Assembly (NCBI GenBank): GCA_963828495.1
Contig: CAWHFJ010000025.1
Coordinates: 1 to 58,131 of the forward strand
Reading direction: 5' to 3'
DNA length: 58,131 bases
Origin: Candidatus Omnitrophota bacterium
GTDB lineage: Bacteria; Omnitrophota; Gorgyraeia; Zapsychrales; Fredricksoniimonadaceae
This document shows, in pieces, positions 7,197 to 56,358 of this stretch. How positions within the stretch are numbered: the stretch's first letter is position 1; every line of letters starts with the position of its first letter. Under the pieces are notes generated by a model. That model was not told where the DNA came from and made no database searches. It saw nothing but the letters and a program-made list of their open reading frames with translations. The translations under genes were made by a program, and so were the position numbers.

Positions 7197-10100
7197 ATGA
7201 GCCGAACCCCATTAGCCCACATAATTATCCTTACAGCCTTTTTGGTTAATACATTTGGGCCCATGCCTTTGGTCCAAGCTCAAGACTTTCGTTTGCCTGT
7301 TCCTGGGGTGATGGTTCATTTAAGCCCGGAATTTAATCCACCAATCTTGAAGGCATTAAAGTCCATCCCGATAATCCATTCCAATTTGATTTTATCTTGG
7401 ATAAAGGTGATAGCCGGTTAGGTAATGACCAGCTTAAAGATGAATCCACTAAGTTGATTAAATATTTCCTTGCCAGCCTGACAATTCCTGAAAAAGATCT
7501 ATGGGTTAACTTATCGCCTTATGAAAAAGATCGCATTATCCCCACAAGTTTTGGGTTAACCGGAATGGGCCGGGACCTGCTGGCGGAAGATTACATGCTG
7601 AAACAGATAACCGCGAGTTTGATTTATCCTGAAGGTGAAGTCGGAAAGAAATTTTGGAAACGCATCTATGAAGAAGCAGCCAAAAAATTTGGCACAACCA
7701 ATATTCCGGTCAATACGTTTAATAAGGTATGGATACTCCCTGAGAAGGCGGTTGTTTATGAGAATGCCAAGGCAGGGACGGCCTATGTAGTTGAAAGCAA
7801 ATTAAAGGTCATGCTGGAACAAGACTATCTTTCCCTTGAGAAACATGAGGGGATTCAAGCAACCCAGAGGAACCAGCCTAACGCCGTACAACCAAGCGCC
7901 CTGGGCTCTCAAATCGTCCGCGAGATAGTCATCCCCGAACTGACCCGTGAAGTCAACGAAGGCAAAAACTTCGCCCAACTGCGCCAAGTCTACAACAGCC
8001 TCATTTTAGCCACATGGTACAAAAAGAAAATCAAAGACAGTATTTTGTCTCAAGTATATGCGGATAAAAATAAGGTGACAGGTGTTAATATCGATGATCC
8101 GCAGGAGAAAGAGAGGATTTATCAGCGATATCTTAGAGCTTTTAAGAAAGGCGTCTTTAATTATATCAAAGAAGATGCAATCTCTATCCCCGATATGCCG
8201 AGCAAGGAACAGGGAATATTTCCAAGAAAATATTTTTCCGGCGGTGAAGATTTAATTAATATGGATAGCGCGATGAACATTACGCAATTGGTCCCCCAAA
8301 AATTTACTATTAAAGGCAGCTTAGTTAGAATTTTCAGCAAAATGGATGCGGCAATGGATGTGCCACATTATGCGGATAGATTAAAATTCTTAAATCCTGA
8401 GTATGTTTCTTCATATGAAGATTCGCCGCCTTCTCGCATAGGAAATCAAGATATGTCTGTCAATGTAACCCAACCAATGAAAGTAAAAGGTCTAGATGAA
8501 TTATTATCTGAATTTAATAAAGAAACCATTAATCAACATATAGAAGTTGTTATGTTAGGAGCTGGGAATGCGGTAGCGTATCATCCGGATATCAATTCTT
8601 CGCCCCAAGCCATAGAAATAATTGGGGCACTGAGTAATGGAAGGCAAGGAGTGCTTGACTTTACAATTGTTGACCGCAGCCCTAAAGTACTCGAGGTGGC
8701 TACAGGTAGGGATCAAAAATACGTAAGTAATGATTTTATCTCGGATTCCGTAAATCATATGGTGACTTCCCATAATGTAATTGCAGGTCGACGTGTTTAT
8801 AATATTGTTATCCATGACAACACAAATTTAGAAAGTTTTAGAGGTAGCTTTCAAGAATTGATGTATGGGGAAAATCAAGTTAATTTGATTATAGCAACAA
8901 ATTCCTTAATTTATTCCTATAGAGCGCTCAATTATGATAAAGGGGCTTACTTAGCATTGATCCTTAGTTTGATAAGAGCGTTAAAGCCATCAGGGAAATT
9001 ACTGATAGATCGACCTTCCCTTGCTGCTTTTATGCCACAAATGGGGGAAGGGAGAGAGGATTCTATAATCAAGGAATCAGATGCCAAAAGATTCGAAGGG
9101 GAGGTTCAAAAATTTGAGGAAGATTTATATAAAAATTACGGGGTAGATATTAGATTGAGATTTTATGATGGCATTGTCGAAATTGAAAAACTGCCCAATT
9201 TAATCAAACGCATTCGAGCCTACGTTAAATCCAGGCTTTTTGCAGAGGGATCGGTTGGACGGGGCCCCATCAGATTTAACTCTCGAATAATTAAAATAGG
9301 CAGCACCCCATTTGACCAGAAAATGGCGGTGGTCACTAAGGAGATAAATAAGATTAGGGCCGGGTTGCGCCAATATTTTACAACAGAAAGTCCGGAGTTT
9401 GATGGTGAAATATCGGAAGGATTGGAAGCTAAAATTTATTATGATGCGCGTGATCCGACGCACAGAAGGTTTTATAAAATATTTTCTAGAGGGGGGGAAC
9501 AGAATGAAGATGAAATCGTATTTTTAAAATATTTGGAAAGTAAGGGAGTTGCAGACGTTCCCAGAGTCTTAGATTGGGGTTTTATAGGTAATGATGTATG
9601 GGCCCATATGGAAGGCATTGCAGAAGCCCAGAGTATCCAAATTTTTAATAAGCAGACCGGGGAGTTGAAATTCTCGCCCATTTGGACTAGGTTAAGCTTT
9701 CCACAGCGTCTTGCTGTGCTCGCTAAAGTAGCTAAGATTTTGTCGGAGGTCCATAAAATGGGGATCAGTGATAACGATGTGAAACCCCTGAATATTATTA
9801 TCAATGATCAAGGGGATGTTATGGTGATTGATTGGAATATTGCTGTGAAATTAGGACAGGAACAAATAATGGGAACTACAGGGTATAGAGCACCAGAGGA
9901 AATAATAATGCTAGACCAGACAGATGTTTATGGTTTGGGGAAAACCATTTACTATAGTCTTGTATCATCACCAGAATACCTTGAGGCTACGGACTTAGCC
10001 AGATGCTTAAGAAATTTCGAAGATGAGATGACACGGCCAAACAATGAAGCCAATAATCGGCCATCGATGGAAGAATCTGCCGAATATCTAGGGGAAATTG

Positions 10101-12705: not shown

Positions 12706-13377
12706 ATGCGTATATTACTTGTTGAAGACGAAAGAAAGTTGTCAGCCGTCATTAAAAGAGGCCTTAAAGAAGTCCATTATGCCGTTGACCTTGCGGATAA
12801 CGGCGAAGATGCACTTTTTTTGGCCCAATCGAATCCTTATGATCTTATTATCCTTGATATTATGCTTCCCGGCCGTGATGGCATCTCTATCTGCCGTCAG
12901 TTAAGGAAAGAAAAGAATACGACCCCTATTCTTATGCTCACAGCCCGTGATGATGTGGAGGACAAAATCTCGGGACTTGACTCCGGGGCGGATGACTATC
13001 TGACAAAGCCATTTTCTTTCCCGGAATTTCTGGCCCGTGTACGCGCCTTGCTCAGGCGTAAGAACACAGAAAAATCAACTCGTCTTCAGGTCGCGGATTT
13101 AGAACTTGATCAGCTGGCACGTCAAGCATGGCGCAAGGGGCAGGCCATCGAGTTGACAGCAACGGAATACTCTCTTCTTGAATATTTGATGCTTAACGTC
13201 GGTCAAGTGGTGACCCGGACGATGATCTCTGAACATGTGTGGAATGATGATTTTGACTCTTTTTCCAACGTTATCAATGTCTATATTAATTACCTTAGAA
13301 AAAAAGTTGACCAAGGCCATGAAAAACAATTGATTCATTCTTTACGCGGCGTTGGTTATGTCTTGAAAGACCAATGA
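12706..13377 (+). CDS. OmpR/PhoB-family response regulator (CusR/CopR-like)
   Basis: Receiver MRILLVEDE...LIILDIMLPGRDG...LTARD...DDYLTKPF, plus a winged-helix C-terminus (ELTATEYSLLEYLM...LRGVGYVL). Confidence 0.9.
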   Translation: MRILLVEDERKLSAVIKRGLKEVHYAVDLADNGEDALFLAQSNPYDLIILDIMLPGRDGISICRQLRKEKNTTPILMLTARDDVEDKISGLDSGADDYLTKPFSFPEFLARVRALLRRKNTEKSTRLQVADLELDQLARQAWRKGQAIELTATEYSLLEYLMLNVGQVVTRTMISEHVWNDDFDSFSNVINVYINYLRKKVDQGHEKQLIHSLRGVGYVLKDQ

Positions 13378-14842
13378 AAACCAATTCGATTCGTTTTAAG
13401 ACTACGGGGCTGGGCACGTGCATTTTGGGCGTCGTCCTTATTCTTTTTAGTGTTTATTTAGTCCATTCAAGTCAGCGGATTCTTTATAAGGAGGAAGAAG
13501 AAGAAATATCGGTCAAAGCTCAAGAGATCACCGACTTCATTGATGCATACGCCAAAATATCTCAGGAAGATAAATCTCCTAAAATGTTGATTTATCAGTT
13601 ACTCGGGGGCAAGAGGCTTACGGATAGGAAGATCGTTGATCAATTGTGGAGAGAAGACAGCAAAACCTTAGGTTTGCAGAATGATTTTTATAGAATACGG
13701 GACCTTAAGGGAGTAGTTATTTTTCGTTCAGATAATCTGATAACCGATGCTGAAAAATCTTTTGATACTCAATTCGCACGGTTTGGCAATGCCACTCATT
13801 TTTCACCCATGAAAATCAACGGCGTCCTTTTTTATGGGATCAATTATCCGGTAAGATTTTCTAACCGCAATGAGTTGAATTTGCAATTAGCTATGCCGAT
13901 TATGCGTATTCAAAGGATCCTCTATAAGCTGGAGGTTGCTCTTATGAGCGGTGTTGTGTTTGTCCTGTTGATCAGCATTTTTGTGGGGATGTATCTGACT
14001 CGTCGGGTCCTGAAACCCGTGGAAGAGGTCACGCGGGTCGCCAATCATATCACTCAAAAGGATTTAAACATGAGGATCCCTATTAGGGAATTGGATAAAG
14101 AGATGGAAGAGCTTGTGGCCTCTTTTAATCATATGATTGAGCGCCTGGAGCAATCATTTGCTCATGTCAATGAGTTTAGCTCACACGTGGCCCACGAGTT
14201 GAAAACCCCGCTGGCCATCATCAAAAATGAGCTTGAATTGGCGATTAATTCAGGCAATTCGAAACAAGAGAATGAGCGTGTCATGGTAGTTACACTTAAT
14301 GAGGTAGATCGGCTTATCAGAATAATTAAGGATTTGTTTCTTTTAGCAAAACTTGAATATAAGCTCAACATTTTTAAAATGGAAAAAATAGATTTAACGG
14401 ATTTCCTTAAGGATGTTTATCAGCATTGCCAAGTATTGGCTTCAGAAAAGAATATCAGTCTTGAATTGATCATTGTTGACCATCCGATTCGGATACAAGG
14501 GGATGCCGTTCATTTACGGAGAGTTTTCTTTAATTTACTTCACAATGCGGTTAACTTTACTTTGCCGGGCGGCCAATCAAGATCGTTAACGAGGTTCGTG
14601 AGAACCAGGTTTTTGTTTCAGTTGAAGATACCGGGATCGGTATTGCCGCGGCTGACAAGGGTCGGATTTTTGAGAAATTCTACCGTGTCCGCCGGGCGGA
14701 GCAGGAAGACGTCGGAGGCCATGGCCTCGGATTATGTATGGCCCGCGCGATCGCCAGGACCCATGGCGGCGATATCACCCTCCAAAGCGAAATTAATAAA
14801 GGGTCCACCTTTACGGTCATCTTACCCATCTTGCTGGATTAA
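13374..14842 (+). CDS. sensor histidine kinase (HAMP-HisKA-HATPase_c, CusS-like), frameshifted as read
   Basis: H-box FSSHVAHELKTPLA. After ~14575 the ATPase domain (GGQIKIVNEVRENQVFVSVEDTGIGI...GGHGLGLCMARAIARTHGGDITLQSE...) continues in the -1 frame to TAA at 14840-14842. A 1-nt loss at ca(a)atc explains it. Confidence 0.85.
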
Positions 14843-39357: not shown

Positions 39358-41080
39358 ATGAGAATTTTAGGTTTGATTTTTATATTATTTTTATCTTTGG
39401 TTAATGTGGCAGCGGCGCAGGAAGTTTTGGATTTGGACAAAATTGTTGTTGAGGCGTCCCGCAGCAATGATACTGTTGGTGCAATGAATAAAGATGTAAC
39501 CGTTATTACTTCTGAGGATATTGCCAATTCGCCGGCTAAGAGTTTGCCCGAGTTATTGAACGAAGTGCCTGGTGTTGACGCAAGAGTCAATAGCAGTATT
39601 AAGGATCAGCAGATTGATATGGGGCAGTTTGGGGAGTCGAGCATGTCTAATGTGGTGGTGTTAATTGACGGCCGGCGTTTGAATACGCCTGATCTGGCTG
39701 CTGCGGATTTGTCACTGATTGACGTAAATGCCATTGATCATATTGAAGTCATACAAGGGGCCGGTACCGTGCTTTATGGGGACAATGCCACCGGTGGGGT
39801 CATCAATATTATAACCAAGAAGGCCCAAGAAAATACCAAGCCGTCCATTACCTTGACCAGTGAAGTGGATGAGTTTAAGGGGAATAAAGAGGGCATGAGC
39901 TTAAGCGGCGGACTGCCTCAATTGACGTATCAAATTGATTATAACCGCCAACAAACGGACAATTATCGTACCCAAGATAATTATTGGGCCAATGATTACG
40001 GTACGCGTTTAAACTATAACCCTACGGATATCTTTGGTGTTGATTTTTCAGAAGGTTATCACTTGGACCGTTATCGCCTGCCGGGGGCCATCAGTCTTGA
40101 GGCAATCAACACCGCGGGGCCGACGGGTGTGGACCCATCAAGTACCGATTATGGGACGACATCGGATTCTCATTTTGATGTTACCCCGCATATGAAATTT
40201 GACATAGGCGCCAGCCATGTGGATCTTTCATTATTTACCTCTGCCCGTAAGAGTGATACTAATTTCGTTTCAAGTTTTGAGTCAACAAACTATGAATTGG
40301 AATCCTATGAATTTCAACCTAAGCTCATCGTATCAACTCCTTTAACAGATCGTTTGAGCAATAAATTAACCTCAGGGTACGACTATATTTATTATACGGA
40401 AAAACGACGCATCGATCCTGACGGTGAACCTGAGGATATTGTTCATGCCAGCGAGGCTTCACAGGGGGTTTATGTGTTAGATGAGGCAACCCTGGATGAT
40501 CGTTGGCTGCTGAATGCCGGGGCCAGGGGGTCGTGGGCAGACTACGTTTTTGATCAAACACAACAAGCAGCTGCAAAATTTGATCGTTCCCCTACAAATG
40601 AAGGCTATGAGGGAGGTTTAGGGTACAAGTATAATCCTGATTCAAAAGTATTTGTGGATTATACCCGTTCCTATCGCTTGCCCAAACTCGATGAATTTTT
40701 TGAAAACCCTTATTGCATTTATGGGTTTTGTGTACCGGGAGGGTTAAATTCCGGATTAACCCCGCAGGTGGGCAATCAGTACCAATTAGGTATTAAGGAC
40801 AAAAGCTTTAAAGGCATTCATTTAGGTTCCAGCTTTACAGAGGTCCAATATAGGAATGAGATTTACGATGATCCTGCAACATTCTCTAATGCTAATTACG
40901 ACGGTAAAACGAGGCATTATAGCGAAGAAGCAGATCTTGCCGTGGCACTGTTTAATAATAAGATTGAGCCGTTTGCCAACATCACCTTCCAACAAACGGA
41001 ATTTATTAAGGGACAATATGCGGGCAATCAAATCCCGGATGTCCCTGACCATCTGGCCCACGCGGGCATAACTTATCGGC
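39358..41080 (+). CDS. TonB-dependent receptor (BtuB-like), 3'-truncated at the block junction
   Basis: Signal peptide, TonB box DKIVVEASR, plug (LLNEVPGVD...VLIDGRRLN...IEVIQGAGTVLYGDNATGGVINIITKK) and barrel. The C-terminal strands and terminal aromatic residue are missing. Confidence 0.85.
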
Positions 41081-41099
41081 CGCTGGAGCGGTTAAGCAC

Positions 41100-42090
41100 G
41101 ACTATTCCTGCGGCGACACACGTCGGAAGCAGATCGAGTTGAACGACCGGCTTTTCGTACAACTTGCCGGCCGGCAGCTTTCCCTTCCATTGGACCATGA
41201 ACGGCACTCGCATGCCGCCTTCCCAGGTCGTGTACTTGAAGCCGCGGAGCGGGCCATTCCCTTCCGGATGGCCGCCGGTGTCCCGTTATCGCTGACGAAG
41301 AACACAAGTGTGTTCTCCTCGTGCCCGGTCCGGCCGCATGGCTTCGAGGACTCGTCCCACGCCATCATCGAGCGCCGAAAGCATGGCGTTCAACACGCGC
41401 TGTTTGCGGTCGGTGACGTGCTTGAACCGCTCCAAATACTTGTCCGATGCTTCATGTGGTCCGTGGATGGCATTGAACGGTAGATACAAGAACCACGGGT
41501 TGTCCTTGTGCCGGGTGATCCAATCACTGGCCCGCGGCAAAGGCATCCGTTGTGTAAAAGTTCGGGTCCTCGATCGGCTGAACGTCGGCCGAGACCCGCG
41601 AGTCGATGAACCCGCCTGGTTCGAAATACGAGCCCGGATTGCCGGTCACTCCGTAGTAGTCGTCGAAACCACGCGACATTGGCAAGCGACCATCGATTTT
41701 ACCAAGATGCCATTTGCCAACCGCGGCGGTGCTGTAGCCGAGCGTTTTCATCCGATCGGCAAAGGTTTTTTCCGTGAGCGGCAGTCCGCCGCCGGCCAGC
41801 GAATTGTTTTCATGGCCATACCGCGTCGGATAGCGGCCGGTCATCATTCCGGCCCTCGACGGTGAGCAGAGCGGGGCCGAGACATAACCGGCCGTGAAAC
41901 GAATGCCGCTGGCGGCAATCGAATCGATGTTCGGAGTTGGCACTTGCTTGCCGCCATAGCAGCCCAATTCGCCATACCCCAGATCATCCGCCAGGATCAC
42001 GAGGATATTCGGCAATCGATCCGCCGCCGCCGGGCGAGCCGCCATTGAAAAGCTGGCCAACACGATGAGGGTCAAAAGACATGCTTTCAC
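41100..42090 (-). CDS. arylsulfatase-family sulfatase, 3'-truncated at the junction and frameshifted at least 3 times as read
   Basis: Signal peptide, NILVILADDLGYGELGCYGG, formylglycine motif CSPSRAGMMTGRYP, GKWHLG. Later segments (NPWFLYLPFNAIHGP, TLVFFVSDNG, GHPEGNGPLRGFKYTTWEGGMRVPFMVQWKGKLPAG...QLDLLPTCVAAGI) are in other frames. Confidence 0.85.
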
Positions 42091-43141: not shown

Positions 43142-44692
43142 GTGTTTCCCTTATCGGCACGGTTTGTTCCCAACTCCGTTCGCCGCCTGGCTTGGAGTTT
43201 GACCCTGGCGATTGGCGGCGTGGCTACGGCGGACGATGGCCTGGCCGACAAACTGATCGCTCCGCCGCTTCCGCCGGCCCCGTCGAGCGCAGCCAACGCT
43301 CCAGAAGAAGTCGAGGCCGAAAACACGGAAGTCATTAGGAACGCTATCCGAACCGCAACGTCAAGGTGGAACGCCACGTCGCCCAAGATGCGGACGGCAA
43401 TTATGCCAACCATGGCACCTGGTCCATTGTGGGATTAAGAACGGCCGGCGCATGTGCCGCGGCCAGTATCAGAACGGAGCTCGTGAAGGGAAGTGGGTCC
43501 GGTTCTTCAAAGCCGGTGAGGCCGAAGTCGTATCCGGCCCGCTCGGCAAAAGCTTCAGTGCCCCGTTCACCTCGGCCGTCACGTTCTTGCATGGCGAACT
43601 CAACGGCACGTGGACGATCGTTGATTGCGCGAGCGGCCGGTCATTTCCTGGCAAATGGAAGACGGTCAACGTCACGGCAAGAGCATCTGGTGGTTCCCCA
43701 ATGGCCAGAAATGGCGCGAGATGGACTATGTGCACGGCGAACTCGACGGCTTCCTCGTCGAATGGGACGCCAACGGCAAGCTCGTTGCCAAAGAACAGTA
43801 CGTCGAAGGCCATCGCTGCGGCGTGCAAATCGAATGGTATTCACCAGGCGTGAAGAAGGTTGAAGCCCAGTACATCTTCGCCCGCGACATCGCGCAAATT
43901 AACGACGACTGGTTCAAAGGGACCAGCCACGTCCGAGTCCTCGGCAAGGAGGGCAAAGACGAGCGGCACGGTCACTGGACGACCTATTACAGCAACGGCC
44001 AGAAGGCGATGCAGGGTGAATACCGTTTCGACAAGCCGTCGGGCGTGTTTATCTGGTGGCATCCCAACGGCCAGAAGGCCATCGTCGGCGAATACACGGA
44101 CGGAAAGCAAACCGGCCATTGGGCCTGGTGGCATGCCAACGGCCAGAAACACATCCGCGGCAACTACGAAAGTGGACGCCAGGCCGGCGCATGGACCTGG
44201 TGGACCGAAGACGGCAAGGTCGCCGAAGCCGCCTCCTTCAATGAGGAGGGGGGCCGAGTCCGGCGCGTCGATCGGCCGTTGGAAGCGGTCGAGCAGCCGC
44301 CGGAGTTGCAAAACCCGGCGGATGCCCAGCCTTCGGCGAATGAATCGGCACAAGCCAAGGCGTCATCGGCCGCTGAACCGGCGACGGTAACCCCGATGCC
44401 GGCCGCGACGTTGCCAGCGGAGCCAGCCGCAACGGTTTCGGCTCCTACGAACCCGACGCCAGTTGACAGTCTGCCAGAGCTGACGCAACCGCCAGCCGTG
44501 GTTGAGCCGAGCAATGGGACGGAAGCCGCCAAGCCGAACAGCCCTGCGACCGTGGAAAAGGACGAAGCGGCCGCGCCACCTGCTCCTCGCCGCGCCGCAC
44601 GCTTGGCACCTCCGCGAAGGGCTAGGCGCATCGCGGACCTTGACTGCCTTAGCTCAAGGTCCGCGCCCAATAACATCCACCGCCACGCTTAA
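43142..44692 (+). CDS. secreted MORN-variant (YwqK-type) repeat protein with a Pro/Ala-rich tail, frameshifted at least 4 times as read
   Basis: Repeats of the form G-x-W-x-WW-x-NGQK-x-x-x-G-x-Y-x-x-G (YSNGQKAMQGEYRFDKPSGVFIWWHPNGQKAIVGEYTDGKQTGHWAWWHANGQKHIRGNYESGRQAGAWTWW). The start (GTG 43142) is uncertain. Confidence 0.65.
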
Positions 44693-44996: not shown

Positions 44997-46393
<1,397 letters not shown>

Positions 46394-46418: not shown

Positions 46419-48297
46419 TCAATCGAAGCGGTGATGTTCAAACTGACATAGCTGGCGTTCCAGCGTTTCGCGTGCGCTGTAATTGGCTTTGATCCAGTCT
46501 CGCGACTCCTTGCCGAGCATTTGTAGCCGTGCGGGCGAGCTGAACGCCCGGCGGAGCTGGACGACAATGTCCGCCTCGCTATAGGCATTGATTATCGGAG
46601 GGACCGACGGAAAGCGGCCTCGGATGGCGGCCTCGTCCAGATAGGTGCAAACCGGCGCTGTGGCGGCCATCGCTTTGAGCATGATGCCGCCAAACGCGCC
46701 GAGATGGAATTGATCTGCGACCACGTCGCAGGCCTGGGCCGTTCGTTCAAATTGAACCATGCCCATGGTTTCGACCCACTTGACGTCACTCGCGACTCTC
46801 AGCTCCTCGAGCAAGGCCAGACTCTCGGGGACATTGCTTCCCCAACGGCAACAAACCATGCCGATTCGCATACCTTCACCGCGCAGGCGAGCGAAAGGTG
46901 CGCAACAGCTTGTCGTTGCCTTTATCGGCATAGCCGGTGCCAGGAACCCAGTCGTGACGCGTCGGAAAGAAAGATCAGAAAATCGGCATCGAGCTCGCGA
47001 ACCAGTTGAGTTCGCCGTTGATTGATTCCGGTCACGGCCAACGAATGGTCGTCGTCGAATGGATGATTGAGGAACGTGACCCGATCGGCGGCCAATCGGC
47101 GGCCATTTTCGTAGCAGTCGGAGTTCGTGACAAAAACATGTTCGGCCATGTGGTAGGCCAGTGCGGTGAGCCGGCCCGTCGGGTCGTCCTCAAACGGGAT
47201 TTGCGCACAGCGTGCCGTGCTCGAGCGCAAATAGGGGCAATCGGCCAACAGCGGTAAGATCGGGTCCGTCGAGTAGCCCAACAACAGATCGTAGTGGCTG
47301 AACAGTTCTTTCCAATGCGGCATCGCCCAGCGGTAGAATTCCATGTCCTGCCGCGTCAATTGATCGCGACGGCCAGGAAAAGCGGCGGCAAAGGCCTCGA
47401 TCAGCACGTCCATGCGTCGGTCGAAGCTGTATTGTTCGGCAACCCGGGGTGTGATTGCCGTTGCAGCTTGTTGATGCGTCCCATGGGCCGGCGTGAGCAG
47501 CCGGACTGCGGCGCTGCGAAACCGTCTCAGGCAGGTATGAATCGCTTCCGTGAAAAGAATGCATTGCAGCTTCACCAGCTTGGCCACTTGCCGCAGTCTG
47601 GGGTGACGATAGACGAGTGTGACCGCGACCCGAGGCGCAGCCCAGCAACAGCCACCAGCCGCCAGCCTGCCAGCGGCGCGGACTGTGGCGAGCGGCCAGG
47701 TATCTCCAGCACAACCGCGCGGCCCTTGGGCAAACCAGCCCGCGGCCGCCGAAAGCCTCTCAGTCGAACGCGCTCCCAAGCTGGATAAAAGTCGTCGCGA
47801 ACGTCGCCTTCGAAGTCCGCGTCTTCCCACTCGGGACAGCCCATGATGTGGTAATAGTTGTGGCAAATAACATCACTGTCGAGGCCGACCTCATTGAGCA
47901 GCTTGGCATTGTTGTAAGCGTTGTTGGCAATGTTCCCGATGTGCAACAGGCGTGGAGCGCGACCATGGCGTCGGCGAAACTCATCCAGCCAGGCAATGCA
48001 TTCAGGCGCGACCCGGCCAGTGGACGGATCTGGCAGCGGAGGGGAATCGTGGCGAAGTGATCGCCGCGACTTCCGGAGAACGGAACAAACTATTGCAGCC
48101 AGGTTGCTTAAGGTGAAGCCGATTAATGGCCGGTCCACGCGGAAGATCGTCTGGCTGTCGTTGTCACCGGCGAACGAGGACATCTGGCGACGGCCTGCCG
48201 GCAGCTTCCAATGCCCCAACCGCCGGAAAACCCTTGAGCTTAAGCGCTCAACGAAGAACCGCACTCCCGGCTTCCTGCCTGGGGTCTGTGGTGTCAT
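46419..48297 (-). CDS. large glycosyltransferase-like protein (GT-B C-terminal half), frameshifted at least 2 times as read
   Basis: N-terminal LLHIGNIANNAYNNAKLLNEVGLDSDVI. C-terminal FGGIMLKAMAATAPV resembles the GT4 E-x7-E region, but both Glu positions are replaced (G and K). Confidence 0.45.
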
Positions 48298-48401
48298 GAA
48301 TGATTCCGCCGCCTGGCTCCGATTCCGATTACAGACTTTGTGGCTACAGCTTAGCCGATCTTACGGCCCGGCAACAACGCACCGGTCGGCAATGAACCCG
48401 C

Positions 48402-48830
48402 TCAAGGAATTGCTAGCCCCTTTCGTCCTTCAAATCCGAAGGCTTGCGCGAGCTTGGAATCAATCGCCAGTCTGTCTCGGAGCATGGAGAGGCGATTTTG
48501 TCGGCGGTATGTCCCGGTCCAACCAATGGCGGAGTCGAGCATAGAACTGGCCTGAAGTTTCGCCTTCCATGCCTGGCACTCGCCGAGAAGTTTCGTTCGG
48601 CGCTGCAACTCAGCGGCTCCGGGAGGAGTTTGTTCAAGCTGGCGGACGAACGCCAGTAACTCCGTCAGCTTGCCGTCATTAAGCTCTTCTACAAGGAGTG
48701 CCTCTTGCCGGCTTTGGTACTGCAGGGTTATCTCGTGGTCCTCACGATTCGCTTTTCGGCTGGCATCCATCCTGAATCTCCATTTTCCATCGCGTTTGGA
48801 TTCACTACAAACATGATAGCAGTTCGGCAC
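48402..48830 (-). CDS. hypothetical protein
   Basis: 142-aa ORF with coding-like composition and no motif. Confidence 0.3.
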   Translation of the reverse strand: MPNCYHVCSESKRDGKWRFRMDASRKANREDHEITLQYQSRQEALLVEELNDGKLTELLAFVRQLEQTPPGAAELQRRTKLLGECQAWKAKLQASSMLDSAIGWTGTYRRQNRLSMLRDRLAIDSKLAQAFGFEGRKGLAIP

Positions 48831-49033
48831 GATGCTGATGGCAAAAGCCGAGGCTTGCGGACATGATTTGTTGCGATTTTCGCGCCATGTTGCTCATATT
48901 ATACGCGGCTTTCCAGGCCGCAGTGGACAGCGTTGGCCTCGACTCGCGTCAGTTACCGGTTGTCGGACGGCGTACATTCGGCCTGGTGTGAAAGCCGGCT
49001 CGTTGGAAATCTTTTCAAGAAAGGTCGGCTGCC

Positions 49034-49617
49034 ATGCGATTCATGAAATCGGCATCGCCTCAGGTTCTTTTGGTTTGCGGCATGGTCCTGGCAACCTTCA
49101 GCGCAATCGGGATCGGACAGAGCAAGTTGACCGCGGCAGAACCGGCCGACAAGATTGGGCAGCTTTTCAAGGCGGACGACTTCTGGTCGCGAACCGGAGC
49201 CAGCCCGATCCACGATTCGATCACGCCCAGGGACAACGATTCCGTCCGGCAATTGGCCGGAAATGCAGAGCATTCCGCCGTGCGTATTCGAGCCTTCAAG
49301 GTGTTGGCCGATCTTTACGGACGGACTCAGTACGCAAGCGATGTTCCGCGCGAGCAGAGGTTAGAGGCGGTCGAAGGTTGCTTTTTATATTTGGAACAGC
49401 ACTTGACGCCCCCGTGGTATCGAAGTTTCGGCCAGAATTAGGATTCACCCACGTTAGTCTCTCGAAGCGGTCAGACGATCGGGATGGACTGTGGGTGCTG
49501 ATCGAGGCCACCGATGGCGTCTTGCCAAGCGGCGGCTTGAACATCCGCTGGGATCTGACCTCGAAGGCGGTCGATCGAATCGACCATTGGGGAGCCAACC
49601 GTAATCCCCTGCCGTAG
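49034..49617 (+). CDS. secreted hypothetical protein, probably one frameshift near 49435
   Basis: Signal peptide MRFMKSASPQVLLVCGMVLATFSAIGIG. The reading continues in another frame (LGFTHVSL...DRIDHWGANRNPLP*). Confidence 0.35.
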
Positions 49618-49883
49618 GCACCGGCTATGCTTCTCCGGCTAGGAAGCCAGATCAACATCCTGGCTTTGGCGGTCCGGCGAGTGACGCCAACCCACCTATT
49701 TTAACAGGCGGATGCGCTCGGTTGCATGGTTGTGGGCGATCGCAAAAAAATCGCGAGATTTTCTGCCGTTACCTGTCGCCGACCCGAAACGGCTCGCGTT
49801 TAAGAGGGCAGGAACATCTCATCCCTCGAAACTTGCCGATTCCGGCAGTTTGTGGGCCTTGTCCTTGAGAAGGGTAGCCACAC

Positions 49884-51105
<1,222 letters not shown>

Positions 51106-51174
51106 CTTGTTTTCCAAGTCGACGAGGCCGTAGCCTTTAAAGTCATCCATGACTGTCGCATCGCAATGAGCAGT

Positions 51175-51220
51175 CCGCGTCTCGGTGGCCAGTCGGTTAC
51201 CGAGACGCGGCTGTTTTTCT
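51175..51220 (+). terminator. rho-independent terminator after the repeat-protein gene
   Basis: 12-bp perfect stem: ccgcgtctcggt (51175-51186) pairs with accgagacgcgg (51199-51210), followed by ctgttttt. Confidence 0.7.
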
Positions 51221-51356
51221 GCCTGGTGTGGCGGCGTGGCCGCTTTCGAGCAATTGCCCGCGGCGAGCCGAGCAACGAAGCGTCACTCAGACGCTCGACG
51301 GCTCCGTGCCGGGTGGCCACAATACGCGAGCTTGCACTTGGAACAAAGGAGTCCAC

Positions 51357-52158
51357 TTGAATCCAGCTTCGTGTGTCATCTTAGTGCCCGATGCCGGATC
51401 GATTTCGCCGGAATTCGCCCAGGGCCTGCAAGTGCTCGAAGGGCGTGGCTACGCCGTGCGCCTTGACGGATGCGCAACCGATCGAAGTCGTTCCGGCCCG
51501 CCATGGCGCGATACGTGTTGGCGGCGGGGTTTGATGAGTTGATGTGGATTGACGGCGACATCTCGTTCCAGGCCGACGATGTGGAAAAGCTACGTCGACA
51601 CGAGCAGCCACTCGTCTGTGGCATTTATCCGAAGGTGCGAAGCCGCGAATTGGCCTGTGCCTTTCTGCCTGGGACGGAAAAGATCCAGTTTGGCGAGATT
51701 GGCGGCCTGGCTGGAGATTTTGTGTGGCGCGTTTGGTTTCATGTTAACTCGCCGCGTTGTCTTCGAAGAGATCCAGCGGCAGTTATCATTGCCCGAGTGC
51801 AATCAGCGATTTTGGCACCGCTATGGTGCCGTGGTTCATGCCATTGTTGGCTGAAGATGCCGCGGCCGGACCTTGGTACCTGGCGGACGATTTCGCATTC
51901 TGCGAGCGTGTGCGGCGCTGCCAGTTCAGAGATCAACTGGCAGATAGCAGCGTCCGACTGTGGTGCATGGGCCGCGCTATCTTTTGGCTGGAAGACGCCG
52001 GCAGCGACAAGCAGGAATATGCCAGTTACATCTTCCATTTGCCGGCAGCGACGGCCGGACCGCAAGCTGTGGAGCTGCTGATGCCGATGCAACAACCCAC
52101 ACAACCCAGTGAGCGTAGCGTGGCCGAGCAGCAATCCGCCTCGCGGCGCGTTGCATGA
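51357..52158 (+). CDS. GT-A-type (family 2-like) glycosyltransferase, frameshifted at least 3 times as read
   Basis: TTG at 51357 after aaggag. CVILVPDAGSISPEFAQGLQVLEGRGYAV, ELMWIDGDISFQADDVEKL, GGL.EILCGAFGFMLTRRVVFEEI, PWYLADDFAFCERVR. Confidence 0.55.
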
Positions 52159-52169
52159 GCCGCCACGGC

Positions 52170-52615
52170 CGCTGCGGGACGATTTCCCACGTTTTCGGGC
52201 TTATGTTGTGAGCTATGCGGCGGACAATCACGAAGCCCTTGCAGGAAACCTTGAAGTCGTATTGCGAAAGCGATTGGGGCGAAGAGCCGCGGGTGTTTAT
52301 GCAACCGGACGATTGGCCGCTAGGCACCCAATCGGCGGCTAATAATTACAAGCGCGGCTTGAAGCGGCCATCGAAGATGATTGCGACTTTGCAGTCATCT
52401 CGGAGGACGATGTCCGCGTCAATCGCCACTTGCGGCGTAACCTGGGGGCGATCCCGCTGTTGAACCGCGATCAATGCGACTATTTCAGTCTGTTCATGCC
52501 GGACCTGATTGCCTCGCCCTGGGAACGGCAAGAACCGCATCTGGGATATCGCCTGGCGAAACCGTTGTACAGCGGTCCCAATCACATGTGGGAAAAACAT
52601 CGGATTTGGCAGTGA
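52170..52615 (+). CDS. hypothetical protein fragments (possible small glycosyltransferase, GT25-like?), frameshifted
   Basis: FPRFRAYVVSYAADNHEAL..., then ...DFAVISEDDVRVNRHLRRNLGAIPLLNRDQCDYFSLFMPDL.... The resemblance is weak. Confidence 0.25.
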
Positions 52616-52830
52616 ACAACCTACGTCTTGTCGCGCCGCTTCATTTTGCAGCGCCGAGCGCCGGGATCGCCTGGCTGAATCGCAGGACACGAGGGTCGTC
52701 TCGGTCTGCTCGGAGCTCCGTTTACCAATGTGGTATTCGGCTCCCTGTCTGATGCAGCATGCCCCGTTGCGTTCGGCGTTTAGCACCCCGGCGGCATACG
52801 CCCCCGACTTCGACAGCGACTTTATCTTCG

Positions 52831-53281
52831 ATGTCCGCGCCGGCTATCAGCTCGCTGGAGGCCATCGCCGGCTGGCTAACATGCGACGAGGGCAGCTTTG
52901 GGGAAGCCGGTGGCGCGGGCGCGATGCTCCGAATTGGGCACGACCGCAGGGCGAGCGACCGTCTGCTGTGCAGCAGAGTCGGCGCGTCGTCAGCGTCGAT
53001 CCGCTCGATCAGAGCGAAGCCCGTCAGTGGACCGCGCGTTACGGTCTGGCGGATCGCGTCGAGTTTCGCGCAAGGCGAGGTCATCGACTGTTGCCCCCTG
53101 CTGGATCAGCAATTTGACCTGGTGTTCCTGGGATACGGAGTACGATGTGGAGTTGCTCCGTGTGATCGACCAGCCCTTGCCACGATTACGACCAGGCGGT
53201 TATCTGGCCGTTCACGACTACCCCGATCCGGACTGGCCCGAGGTGCGGCGCGTCGTGGACGAGTACTGGCGCGGCGACTGA
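52831..53281 (+). CDS. class I SAM-dependent methyltransferase (Methyltransf_24-like), frameshifted as read
   Basis: LEAIAGWLTCDEG..., VVSVDPLDQSEARQWTARYGLADRVEF, FDLVFLD.EYDVELLRVIDQPLPRLRPGGYLAVHDY. Confidence 0.5.
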
Positions 53282-53631
53282 ACTGGAAGCGTCATGGGCA
53301 GGTCGACTACCTCGGCGTTTTCCGTACGTGAGCAATCGTGCGGGTATTGATCCATCGCGGCTCCGCCAGCCAACAGCAACGGTTGAAAGAAACGGCCGCA
53401 AATGATATGCCTAACCTTGATGGCACTAGCGGCAATCGCCAGAGTACCCGCTTGCTCAAGGCGTTGCGCGAACTGATTGTAGGTGAATGGCCCCCGTGTC
53501 GCCTTCTTCTCGTCGTGGCGGCAACCATTTGCAGGCCTGGGCTTGCCCTGATTGCCAAGCACGGCTGACGGCCTTGCCGGCTTGGGCGAAAGCGTACCTG
53601 CGCGGGCAGCACTACCTGAAGGGGAGAGAAG

Positions 53632-54992
53632 ATGTTTCGCGTCAAAGCATCTGAGGGCACCGAAGAGCTTCTCTGCCGCAGAACTCAACTCTACGGATCA
53701 CGCTATTGCTGGCCTGCACCCTGGCCAGTTGCGGGTCGATTTATCTGATCTTCCAAGACATCGTCGCGTCAGTGCCTGGCTCGAAGCTCGAACCGCTGTC
53801 GATGTCGAGCCTCGCATCGCTAAAGGCAGCAGCTCAGCCTGCAACTCTGCGGAAGTCTGGTCGTCCTCGCCATCCTGCTGTTTTGCCAGATCGCCATGTG
53901 GTGGCTGCGGCGCCGGTACCTGTTTAGCCAACAGTCTTTACGCCAGGTGAAGATGCTCGCACATGACATTTTGGCAAGCATGGACCGGGGTGTCCTGACG
54001 ACCAACTGCGAAGGAGTCGTCACAAGCATCAATTCAGCAGGAATCAACCTACTTGGGTTGGACTTTGAATGCGTCGGCACACCAGTTGCGTCCATCTCCT
54101 CGGCGGGATGTGCCTTTGGCCGAAGTATGCGGGGACGTACTTCGGAGCGAGGTAGCGGTTTGCGATCGTAACGTAAAAATCGAACGAGTGGGGCGCGTTG
54201 GCGCATTCGGCGACTGTGCATGTGCTTCAAGACAGCGAAGTGGCAGTCGTGGGTTGCGTTATCCACCTGCGCGATGTGACCGAGCGGATGTTGTTGGAAG
54301 AACAGATGCGCCGGATGGAGCGATTCGTCAGCGTTGCCATGTTGGCATCCGGGCTGCATCACGAAATCAAGAATCCGCTAACCGCCTTGAGCATCCATAT
54401 CCAACTCCTGGAGGAGAACCTGTCGTCTAGCGAGCCCGAGCAACAGGTCAACGAAATTGTCGGCGTACTGAAAACCGACTTGCCATTCGGCTCAACGGCG
54501 TGCTGGAAAGTCTTCCCGAAACTTTGCGAACCTTCAACATTTGGAACTGCAGCCGACCGACGTTCTGGACTTGGTCGAAAATGTCATCCGCCTGATTCGG
54601 CCGCAGGCGGCGAAACAGAAGGTCGAGATATGTTCCTCCGGCCAGACGCTGAACTGCCTCGCGTGCCGATGGATGCCGACAAGTTCGAAGAAGGGCCTGT
54701 AACCTCGTCATCAATGCCCTGGAGGCAATGCCGGATGGTGGCAAACTGACGCTGAACCTCTTGGCTGGCAACGGCAAAGTCTGTCTCGCGATTGAGGATA
54801 ATGGTTTTGGCATCCCGCCCGAGGTACAGCGCAACCTGTTTCGGCCATACTTCTCGACGAAGAGCAAAGGAAGTGGGATGGGTTTGGCATTGTGCGAGAA
54901 GTTAATCAGTCAGCACGGCGGACAAATCGACTATCGAACGGGCACAACAGGAACAACTTTTGAAATCAGCATCCCACTCCACAAATCAATGA
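53632..54992 (+). CDS. membrane PAS sensor histidine kinase (NtrB-like), frameshifted at least 4 times as read
   Basis: ATG after aggggagag. Two TM segments. PAS (LAHDILASMDRGVLTTNCEGVVTSINSAGINLLG). H-box LASGLHHEIKNPLTAL. ATPase GGKLTLNL...IEDNGFGIPPEV...STKSKGSGMGLALCEKLISQHGG. The end is assumed at an ATGA overlap. Confidence 0.75.
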
Positions 54993-56358
54993 AGTCCATG
55001 AAGCGATCGAAATTTTCGCATCCTGATCGTCGACGATGAGCCGAATATCCGCGCCTGGCCTGGCGAAGGCTTTGGCCGGCGAGGCTGATGAGGTCGATAC
55101 CGCTCAAGACGAGGTTGCCGCTCTCGCCTTATTCCGCAAGGAACACCACCATCTCGTGATTACCGATCTCAAGATGGTGGGACCTCGGCCGGGCTAGATC
55201 TGATGAAGCAGATCAAGCAGGAGAGGCCGAGACGCTGATCTTTGTCATTACGGCTCATGGTACCATCGATACCGCCGTCGAAGCCATGCGGGCCGGCGCC
55301 CATGAACTATATGAGCAAACCGGTTGATATCGGGATGCTGCGCCTTCAGGTTCGCAACGCCTACGAGCACCATCGGCTGACTCGAGGAGAACCGCCAACT
55401 CCGCAATCGGTTAGCGATGGCCGGCGAGGTTCCCGAGATGATCGGCCAAAGTCGCCGGCAATGCACGACGTGTTCGATCGGATTCGCCAGGTTGCCGCCA
55501 CGGATGTGACCATCTTGATCCACGGTGAAAGCGGTACCGGCAAGGAGCTGGTTGCCCGGGCTCTCCATAACTTGAGCCCCAGGTGTCTCAGCAACCGTTC
55601 ATTGCTGCGAACGTCGGCGCCTTGCCGGAATCACTGATCGAAAGCGAGCTATTCGGCTACGAGAAGGGAGCCTTTACCGGGGCTCATCGAGATAAGCCCG
55701 GTTGGTTTGAAATGGCTCAAGGCGGTATCTTGTTTCTCGACGAGATCGGAGAAATGCCGCCGAAGACGCAGGTGGACTTGCTGGCGAGAGCGCTGGAGCA
55801 GCGCAACTTGCCGGGGTCGGCAGTGAGGACTTGATCCGCGTTGACGTGAGGCTCATCGCCGCGACGCACCGAGACACCGCGACGTTGGTACGTGAGGGAA
55901 AATTTCGGGAAGATCTGTATTATCGATTGAACGTCGTACCGTTGCGGGTGCCTCCATTGCGTGAGCGACGTGACGACATCCCACTGCTGGTCGAGCATTT
56001 CCTTTGCCGATCCAGGGAAAGTTACCAAAAAGAGGCGCAAAGACGTCGCCGAGGCTGCCATGCGTATCATGTGTGGCTACCCTTGGCCGGGCAACGTCCG
56101 GCAGTTGCGGAATTGCATGGAACGGCTGACGGTCACAGTCGAAGGCCCCTCGATCCATGCAGAGGACTTACCCGAGGACATGCTTGCCGTGCCCGACCCA
56201 ACCGTTGTGACCCTGGAGCAAGCCGTCCAGAAAGCAGAAAAGGCCGCGATCTTGGCCGCGTTGGGGCAGTGCAACCAGCATCGCGATGCTCGGCCCATCT
56301 CCTCGGCATCAGCGTCCGGAACCTGCATTACAAGATGAACCGCTACGGTTTGCAGTAA
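54989..56358 (+). CDS. sigma-54-dependent response regulator (NtrC/AtoC family enhancer-binding protein), frameshifted at least 6 times as read
   Basis: Receiver [11 protein letters not shown]...VITDLKM...[21 protein letters not shown]+ [89 protein letters not shown]. Fis-type [21 protein letters not shown]. Confidence 0.85.

Follow-up and report, generated by a model that had tools for sequence, protein, structure and literature searches.

Only Gram-positive pathogens are known to glycosylate dipeptide-repeat surface proteins with dedicated enzymes; their substrates are the serine-rich repeat proteins (SRRPs) and the Sdr/Clf proteins, and the glycosyltransferases (GTs) they use are of the GT-B fold. 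In staphylococci, proteins in which SdrD B domains are followed by Ser-Asp (SD) repeats are O-GlcNAcylated by the adjacently encoded SdgA and SdgB (PMC3794999, PMC8561734). Here we analyze a Gly-Ser (GS) repeat gene and its neighbours in a public contig deposited under Candidatus Omnitrophota (CAWHFJ010000025.1); the whole contig, of 58,131 bases, is referred to as the window. By analogy with SRRPs, the initial annotation of this region proposed an O-glycosylation locus made up of a repeat protein, a GT-B-like protein, a GT-A-like enzyme with small GT fragments, and a methyltransferase. The GT-B-like gene, the repeat gene, the GT-A region and the methyltransferase were all present at about the places given. 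With moderate confidence, and on comparative sequence grounds, we propose a smaller unit: a two-gene cassette, not a multi-gene island, that would be dedicated to the cytoplasmic O-glycosylation of Gly-Ser tracts.

The first gene of the cassette (49884..51103, plus strand) was recognized from the homology of its N-terminus, its tandem repeats and its frame pieces. It encodes a low-complexity protein of secreted type with ~11 units of (GS)n-K/Q-A/T-P5-7-V, such as (GS)n-KAPPPPPV, on tandem DNA repeats of period 84/120. The window copy contains many frameshifts and has its stop codon at ~51103. An 86%-identical match to the second domain of the enzyme described below led to an intact counterpart in a 134-kb contig (ENA ERZ25039521, contig_27981; L088), where positions 7373-8692 form an open reading frame (ORF) of 439 aa with ~13 units of (GS)5-8 followed by K/Q-A/T-P6-7-V. 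According to blastn, the two repeat genes are 67-69% identical, and the N-terminal 47 residues of their products are 79% identical. The L088 protein begins MRISISDILGR...SIESLGDRVLL and ends ...GSGSGSASTIVK. In NCBIfam searches it gave only a compositional likeness to the SD-repeat regions of SdrD, SdrC and ClfA, far under cut-off. L088:7133-8765 has four open frames of 332-519 aa, two on each strand, of which the public annotation took a minus-strand one (the EPLP frame); mis-annotation of such repeat genes is probably common.

A short N-terminal motif, L-x-x-E-x-L-x-(D/E)-R-x-(L/V) after a basic stretch, is common to the window protein (49980-50030) and to the GS-tract proteins of L014, L019, L038, L048, L052, L078, L079, L101 and L024. 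We found no description of this motif. It may serve export or processing in planctomycetes.

The second gene (51363..53325, plus strand) encodes a single three-domain enzyme of ~650 aa. A frameshift-aware alignment of this segment to the protein encoded by L078:9989-11950 was colinear over guide residues 3-651 of 653, with 368/657 positions identical (56%). Intact single-ORF orthologues are found in Gemmataceae genomes (L078:9989-11950, 653 aa; L017:9986-11935, 649 aa; L021:9974-11968, 664 aa), and the gene is 74% identical at the nucleotide level to L088:8942-10929 (blastn). The blocks 51357-52158, 52170-52615 and 52831-53281, which had been read as a GT-A gene, small GT fragments and a methyltransferase gene, belong to one gene because the same blocks form a single ORF in the intact relatives; the domains were correctly recognized, their division into separate genes was not. 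No signal peptide or membrane segment was visible in the intact orthologues, so the enzyme is presumably cytoplasmic. Frameshift correction against these orthologues was needed to bring out the domains: on the raw ORF fragments, Pfam gave only a sub-threshold Methyltransf_24 match. Better representatives of the cassette than the window copy are the intact copies in L088, L078, L017, L101 and Limnoglobus roseus.

Domain 1 (51363..52050, plus strand; ~228 aa) is a GT-A-fold glycosyltransferase-like domain, recognized from an AlphaFold2 (AF2) model, Foldseek searches and two motifs, WIDGD and (A/E)D(D/Y)(F/A)FCER. Its 174 homologues are annotated as hypothetical proteins and none carries a Pfam domain. 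In the family alignment, D65 and D67 (within WIDGD in the window) are invariant and the (A/E)D(D/Y)(F/A)FCER block is conserved. The AF2 model had a pLDDT (predicted local distance difference test score) of 89.7 and returned 107 PDB matches at E ≤ 1e-3, led by GT-A enzymes and including STIV A197 (E 5e-9), the glycosyltransferase domain of LH3, COLGALT1 and SpsA, which bears out the GT-A-like reading of 51357-52158. Signals for Glyco_transf_21 (E 1.4e-5 in a relative; 19.1 bits in the window, cut-off 21.7) and Anp1 were below cut-off, and PF00535 (Glycos_transf_2) gave a signal in 2 of 34 family members (E 0.13). In the Pfam scans of the window and its relatives, no GT domain exceeded its gathering score.

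Domain 2 (52140..52851, plus strand; ~235 aa) was identified as a second GT-A-fold domain from its AF2 model, Foldseek matches, an EDD motif and the RDQCDY...LFMPDL pattern. It has 30 homologues, mostly from Gemmataceae and Isosphaeraceae and usually fused to Methyltransf_24. The EDD motif (E88-D89-D90) is nearly invariant, reading ISEDDVRV in the window and ILEDDVRV in the family consensus. Over this domain, the corrected window protein is ~81-86% identical to close relatives. The model (pLDDT 83.3) gave 53 Foldseek matches at E ≤ 1e-3, among them POMGnT1 (E 6e-6), GnT-I, Mimivirus R699/R655 and COLGALT1. The small GT fragments at 52170-52615 thus do have a GT-A fold (pLDDT 83) but are part of this domain. 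A GT25 identity for the same stretch, guessed from a sequence pattern, was rejected: PF01755 (Glyco_transf_25) had no match in any Pfam scan of the window or its relatives, and the likeness to GT13, GT25 and GT31 enzymes is at fold level only. According to the models, both GT domains have GT-A folds with acidic motifs of the metal-binding type, and both are putatively catalytic.

Domain 3 (52852..53325, plus strand) is a class I S-adenosylmethionine-dependent methyltransferase (Methyltransf_24, PF13578), as the initial annotation had it. After frameshift correction it scored 44.8 bits (E 2.6e-11) against a cut-off of 26.3, while the raw fragment scored 21.4 bits, below cut-off; intact orthologues reach 72.6 bits (E 5.5e-20), and the L017 orthologue also has a weak match to Methyltransf_3 (O-methyltransferase). 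Its fusion to two GT domains suggests that it acts on a sugar hydroxyl.

To delimit the unit, we compared the window with 21 kb of L088. In blastn, the repeat gene and the enzyme gene were the only two genes in common and the flanks were unrelated; we therefore consider these two genes to be the cassette. We also surveyed 80 genome loci with domain 1 relatives, together with four metagenome loci, for ORFs bearing (GS)≥4 tracts in all six frames. Among 43 Planctomycetota loci, 15 had a same-strand tract ORF ending ≤4 kb upstream of the GT-A gene (9 of them within 1.2 kb), against 3 tract ORFs in the rest of the 549 kb on both strands. The corresponding counts were two of three loci in Myxococcales, with none elsewhere, and 0 of 37 loci in actinomycetes, with 7 elsewhere. 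For Planctomycetota, the upstream enrichment is ~34-fold with a binomial p of ~2e-11, by a hand calculation that ignores kinship of the loci; p stays at ~1e-6 if the loci are collapsed to ~9 lineages. Synteny between repeat protein and GT is thus conserved in part, with a GS tract upstream in 15/43 Planctomycetota loci, and does not extend to the GT-B-like gene. A scan of metagenome contigs with domain 2, made independently, yielded 18 loci; of the 12 with upstream sequence, four had an upstream GS tract (L097, L101, L102 and L104). L101 and L102 have the same upstream protein and L104 seems to duplicate L038, with identical tract coordinates, so that the new independent cases are two (L097 and L101/L102).

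The tract proteins are diverse. They include SdrD_B proteins (L006, L008, L014, L017, L019, L034), an NHL-repeat protein (L052), beta-helix-like proteins (L009, L101) and RHS proteins with SG-rich inserts (L021/L092, L024). Common to them are the tract, its position and the N-terminal L-x-x-E-x-L-x-x-R-x-L/V motif. Where one genome holds paralogous GT genes, their partner GS proteins differ from one another (L019/L056/L078 in one metagenome-assembled genome (MAG), L008/L016 in another). A tract gene also adjoins the GT-A gene (L024:10001-10726, in NZ_CP042425.1) of a cultured organism, Limnoglobus roseus PX52: the divergent neighbour (L024:1844-9616) encodes a 2,590-aa RHS protein with long (GSGSES)n tracts; this gene contains 48 degenerate pattern matches versus 1.4 expected. 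Three Nocardia loci (L071 (10781-14117), L073 and L086) have, 1.8 kb downstream, a convergent gene for a protein of 767-775 aa in which (GS)17 precedes a Ser/Thr/Pro-rich region. Actinomycetes, too, may therefore pair the enzyme with GS tracts, though with the genes arranged differently.

Several further features of these loci were recorded. The giant RHS/YD-repeat proteins (L024:1844-9616, L021:2144-8203 / L092:16-3444) contain inserted Gly-Ser-rich segments, either (GSGSES)n or SGS-rich. As RHS proteins mostly serve to deliver toxins, a glycosylatable insert in them would be unexpected. In one group of MAGs (L017:5228-6949, L019:6181-8652, L056:7310-7636, L078:7191-9083), the pattern (GS)3-5-[A/D]TTT-x-H-[N/E/D], for example GSGSGSGATTTVHN, is repeated directly before the SdrD_B domain. 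This pattern looks like a specific recognition or modification site, not a plain linker. At L005:8001-16849, a homologue lies near a Glyco_transf_25 gene, a PhageMin_Tail tape-measure-like gene and a YD-shell protein, and an uncalled minus-strand ORF (13127-13588) encodes GSSAPPP repeats; this locus may be a mobile or phage-borne form of the pairing. In the Nocardia loci L071, L073 and L086, a gene for a 339-aa protein without a family match is also located downstream of the GT-A homologue.

Relatives of domain 1 were found in Gemmataceae, Pirellulales, Isosphaeraceae, Myxococcales, and Nocardia and related actinomycetes, with 382 in a species-level genome collection. A profile search of 1.84 billion representatives returned 386 clusters at E ≤ 1e-30 and 4,615 at E ≤ 1e-10. 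Elsewhere, domain 1 is fused in several orders to Methyltransf_24, Sulfotransfer_3, Glycos_transf_2 (GT2) or GT-B domains (P0300, P0314, P0315, P0406; L005:7401-8849). The variety of these fusions marks domain 1 as a likely glycan-building or glycan-decorating module, and suggests that it belongs to modular enzymes making methylated or sulfated glycans. In the full-text literature searched, there was no report of Gly-Ser repeat glycosylation or of the domain 1 enzyme family in planctomycetes or other bacteria, and to our knowledge the family has no CAZy family.

The anatomy of the cassette, its folds, conserved motifs and fusion architecture, and its adjacency to GS-tract proteins are observed; from them we infer the acceptor (protein Ser), the sequence in which the domains act, the sugars and where in the cell the product is located. 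That the pairing with tract proteins is conserved suggests the tract protein as the acceptor. The product of the first gene would be an exported, intrinsically disordered protein whose Gly-Ser tracts are split by rigid polyproline spacers. Before export, in the cytoplasm, domain 1 would transfer a first sugar from a nucleotide sugar to the Ser hydroxyls of the unfolded (GS)n tracts, domain 2 would extend the glycan with a second sugar, and the Methyltransf_24 domain would cap it by O-methylation. The expected product is a densely O-glycosylated, protease-resistant, extended fibre at the cell surface or in the extracellular space, in which the polyproline spacers would keep the glycosylated tracts apart. 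More broadly, and tentatively, we suggest that soluble GT-A-fold protein O-glycosyltransferases that read Gly-Ser tracts of exported proteins are widespread but unrecognized in Planctomycetota, Myxococcota and perhaps Nocardia, and that the subfamily in the window writes a methyl-capped disaccharide onto (GS)n-polyproline "bottle-brush" proteins.

Several points weigh against this proposal. Comparison is the source of the glycosylation role assigned to the enzyme family, polysaccharides and glycolipids, too, are built by GT-A enzymes that lack membrane segments, and what the enzyme has in common with the protein-modifying GT-A enzymes matched by Foldseek is the general fold. Because related MAGs contribute loci that are not independent, the p of ~2e-11 is optimistic. 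About 60% of the Planctomycetota loci have no strict GS tract upstream; in L012 and L033, degenerate DNA pattern searches detected none within 10 kb even with mismatches allowed, and upstream tracts were absent from all 37 actinomycete loci. The two genes of the window are separated by a strong terminator-like hairpin (51175..51210, plus strand; a 16-bp stem with 11 G-C pairs and a 4-nt loop, then CTGTTTTTCT), and co-transcription is therefore not required. A weaker terminator-like site occurs at the equivalent position of L088 (8786-8802); both calls are consensus matches only. Finally, the window copy cannot be translated as it stands, and cannot by itself prove that the genes work.

The main rival explanation, which we regard as possible though rather unlikely, is that the acceptor is not a protein but, for instance, a polysaccharide, a glycolipid or a small molecule, on which the three-domain enzyme would make or cap a methylated glycan; adjacency to GS tracts would then be a by-product of variable surface-protein islands. 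Fusions of the GT-A domain to Sulfotransfer_3, Methyltransf_24, GT2 and GT-B domains are typical of polysaccharide-decorating enzymes, more than half of the loci lack a nearby GS tract, many Nocardia carry the family with no GS protein upstream of it, and the L005 copy lies near a GT25 gene and phage-tail-like genes. However, the enrichment is specific to position (immediately upstream), to strand and to the GS feature across proteins of unrelated architecture, whereas GS tracts are nearly absent from the remaining large genes for secreted proteins in that 549 kb. Moreover, the cassette moves as a pair between different flanks, and genes for polysaccharide export, polymerases or flippases were not found alongside it in the window, L088, L078, L017 or L101. 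These data favour the tract protein as acceptor.

A second alternative follows the initial annotation more closely: the repeat protein would be modified, in an SRRP-like island, by the GT-B-like enzyme together with a GT2, further small GTs and a separately encoded methyltransferase. All of these genes lie inside 7 kb of the window, and SRRP and Sdr systems attach the first sugar with GT-B enzymes (PMC5207161, PMC3794999). The GT-B-like gene (46431..48015, minus strand) was identified by homology, with frameshifts at ~47740, 46969 and 46900 according to tblastn. Its 951 homologues of ~550 aa occur in cyanobacteria, proteobacteria and planctomycetes, the best being 60% identical and from planctomycete-type contigs. 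The protein appears to belong to a large, uncharacterized GT4-like family: some homologues carry weak PF00534, PF13692 or PF13524 matches, and NCBIfam GT4 models (MshA/BshA-type) match far under cut-off. The absence of both Glu residues of the E-x7-E motif, noted initially, is real and family-wide, not decay of the window copy, since the position reads G...K across the family, inside an invariant DQFxLGxFGGxxxKAMA.

However, this gene had no tblastn match in any of the 84 GT-A loci and no blastn match in L088, and no GS tracts were found around its closest homologues. It is on the opposite strand and two unrelated ORFs away from the repeat gene. Moreover, the "small GTs" and "methyltransferase" are domains of one gene, and the locus lacks accessory Sec genes and a GtfA/B-type pair. 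Being a separate, widespread family that is absent from every related locus, the GT-B-like gene probably falls outside the unit, as a neighbour and not, as first proposed, a member of the system. Overall, we consider an SRRP-like island improbable, and the two-gene cassette remains the preferred delimitation.

A class I methyltransferase gene lies directly ahead, across a 12-nt gap, of the genes for the closest homologues of the GT-B-like protein (652 aa; L001:8862-11959, L003); behind them come two unknown genes and those for an NAD-dependent epimerase and a UDP-glucose dehydrogenase. This context is a separate, uncharacterized glycan locus. In the window, the two small ORFs between the GT-B-like and repeat genes (48402-48830, minus strand; 49034-49441, plus strand, with a signal-peptide-like N-terminus) had no Pfam or NCBIfam match, no tblastn match in the related loci and no counterpart in L088 at the DNA level.

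The state of the window sequence bears on a third alternative, namely that the region is decayed and encodes nothing functional. The window consists of two strongly unlike parts. In the left part, from 1 to ~41,100, the GC content is 44% and the ORFs are clean and mostly on the plus strand; from ~41,100, the GC content rises to 60% inside 200 bases and every gene beyond is fragmented. Proteins of the left part cluster at ≥90% identity with those of Omnitrophota/Smithellaceae-type MAGs. A TonB-dependent-receptor-like gene (39358-41142) aligns to its 667-aa relatives only up to residue 583 (nt ~41,107), beyond which the sequence is unrelated. Because this end of homology coincides with the break in composition and with the change from Omnitrophota-like to planctomycetal sequence, the contig is a chimera, in which Omnitrophota-like sequence is joined at ~41107 to indel-rich planctomycete sequence. 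The cassette region falls entirely within the planctomycete part. A prophage identity for 1-41 kb, considered on account of its GC content of 44% and plus-strand genes, was rejected because PHROGs returned cellular proteins (an elongation-factor-type GTPase and kinases), no tRNAs were present and the proteins cluster with those of Omnitrophota/Smithellaceae-like bacteria.

As the initial annotation stated, the genes are frameshifted as read, and this holds for all genes of the planctomycete part (41.1-58.1 kb), including those for RtcB, the sulfatase and the two-component regulators. The features outside the cassette include a sulfatase (41524-42090), a MORN-like protein (43625-44692), RtcB (45277-46268) and a His-kinase/NtrC-type regulator (53896-56358), all frameshifted. 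In a Pfam scan of the fragments, sulfatase, RtcB and PTS EIIA-2 were detected; the MORN-like gene, the GT-B-like gene, the cassette and the His-kinase/NtrC pair were recognized via translations and homology searches. The GT-B-like gene has at least three frame changes, the repeat gene many, and the enzyme gene at least 14 frameshifts and one in-frame stop (52615).

That every gene from 41.1 to 58.1 kb is hit, at ~1 frameshift per 130 nt in the enzyme gene, is what decay would produce. However, housekeeping genes (RtcB, the NtrC-type regulator, the sulfatase) are hit too, and the combination of 14 frameshifts with a single in-frame stop and 56% identity to orthologues along the whole length is a signature of indel sequencing errors. 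Since, in addition, relatives carry intact copies and the contig is chimeric, the frameshifts are most likely sequencing errors on a poorly polished chimera rather than marks of dead genes, although no homopolymer bias was evident in the local contexts of the indel sites. We accordingly judge a pseudogene region to be highly improbable.

Least probable of all is that the (GS)n ORF is not a gene but repetitive DNA open by chance in several frames: three other L088 frames are open across the repeat (332-406 aa) and the gene caller took the minus strand, but the non-repetitive N-terminal 47 residues are 79% conserved in the GS frame only, this N-terminus has the L-x-x-E-x-L-x-x-R-x-L motif of other GS-tract proteins, the GS tracts of other loci sit in long ORFs with Pfam domains, and a terminator-like hairpin follows the stop codon.

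If the proposal of a glycosylating two-gene cassette is correct, Planctomycetota and Myxococcota arrived at the strategy of the Gram-positive pathogens on their own, using GT-A enzymes. A large family of "hypothetical" proteins, Nocardia members included, would also gain its first function, and there would be an explanation for the Gly-Ser tracts that are frequent in exported proteins of planctomycetes and mostly taken for mere linkers. (GS)n is the most common synthetic linker in protein engineering; the cassette would supply a compact, single-polypeptide enzyme with a simple (GS)n acceptor tag, usable to glycosylate recombinant proteins. The cassette further offers a concrete, testable way into the surface glycoproteins of planctomycetes, about which little is known.

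By analogy, the system nearest to the cassette in working principle appears to be the staphylococcal SD-repeat system, followed by the streptococcal SRRP system with GtfA/GtfB and accessory Sec. The former comprises SdrC/D/E, ClfA/B and Pls together with SdgA/SdgB (also PMC5230774), and resembles the cassette in that a long Ser-x dipeptide-repeat surface protein adjoins soluble GTs of cytoplasmic type. In addition, many planctomycetal GS-tract proteins carry SdrD_B domains beside the tract, and two sequential sugar additions are expected in both. The working principle, a dedicated GT gene adjoining a dipeptide-repeat gene, is seen, as adjacency only, in 15/43 Planctomycetota loci, 2/3 Myxococcales loci and L088. 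To this extent the idea of an O-glycosylation locus gains comparative support, in that a repeat protein stands beside a GT/methyltransferase enzyme; glycosylation itself is what we propose from it. By contrast, the staphylococcal repeat is Ser-Asp, whereas here it is Gly-Ser with K-A-P(5-7)-V spacers; SdgA and SdgB are GT-B enzymes (GT4), whereas here two GT-A-fold domains without a Pfam family are fused with a methyltransferase in one polypeptide. The staphylococcal proteins have an LPXTG anchor that is not present here, the phylum and the envelope type differ, and the planctomycete system is known from sequence alone.

With the Gram-positive SRRPs (PMC5207161, PMC7661464, PMC6973325), the cassette would share the logic of cytoplasmic O-glycosylation by dedicated, adjacently encoded enzymes, and SRRP systems likewise use bifunctional two-domain GTs (dGT1) that extend the glycan. 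However, the GtfA/GtfB pair is not present, the only GT-B-like gene belonging to another, ~550-aa family; the repeat chemistry differs and the enzyme families are unrelated. SecA2, SecY2 and Asp1-3 genes were not found in the 41.1-58.1 kb part of the window, L088, L078, L017 or L101, in agreement with the initial remark that no dedicated export genes are visible, and the intact L088 repeat protein has neither an LPXTG anchor nor a KxYKxGKxW-type signal peptide. Homology to the Gram-positive SRRP system is thus not borne out, and membership in either the staphylococcal or the SRRP system fails on each defining component tested, from the fold and family of the enzymes and the chemistry of the repeat to the export genes and the anchor.

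The Streptococcus mutans adhesin Cnm and its pgf operon (PMC5856776) also combine a repeat-region adhesin with adjoining dedicated glycosylation genes, including one for a GT-A (GT2) enzyme. That operon differs in that several separate proteins modify Cnm at its Thr-rich repeats; the gene of the window enzyme has no comparable partner genes beside it. The pgf products include membrane proteins, whereas the window enzyme has no membrane segment. The best structural matches, STIV A197, LH3/COLGALT1 (GT25), GnT-I/POMGnT1 (GT13) and Mimivirus R655/R699, share acidic DxD/EDD motifs with the enzyme; at 6-17% identity and TM-scores of 0.45-0.66, and with no Pfam or NCBIfam model matched, this is a likeness of GT-A fold only.

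A more distant parallel is the initiation of eukaryotic proteoglycans such as serglycin by xylosyltransferase, in which the Ser of Ser-Gly repeats is the acceptor for a dedicated GT-A-type transferase and further GTs follow. That process takes place in the lumen of the secretory pathway, uses other GT families and builds long glycosaminoglycan chains; its relation to the cassette is an analogy without shown homology. If our reading holds, the cassette would be a Gram-negative, GT-A-based counterpart of both SdgA/SdgB and eukaryotic Ser-Gly proteoglycan initiation: the theme of a repeat adhesin with its dedicated glycosyltransferase, rebuilt from unrelated parts.

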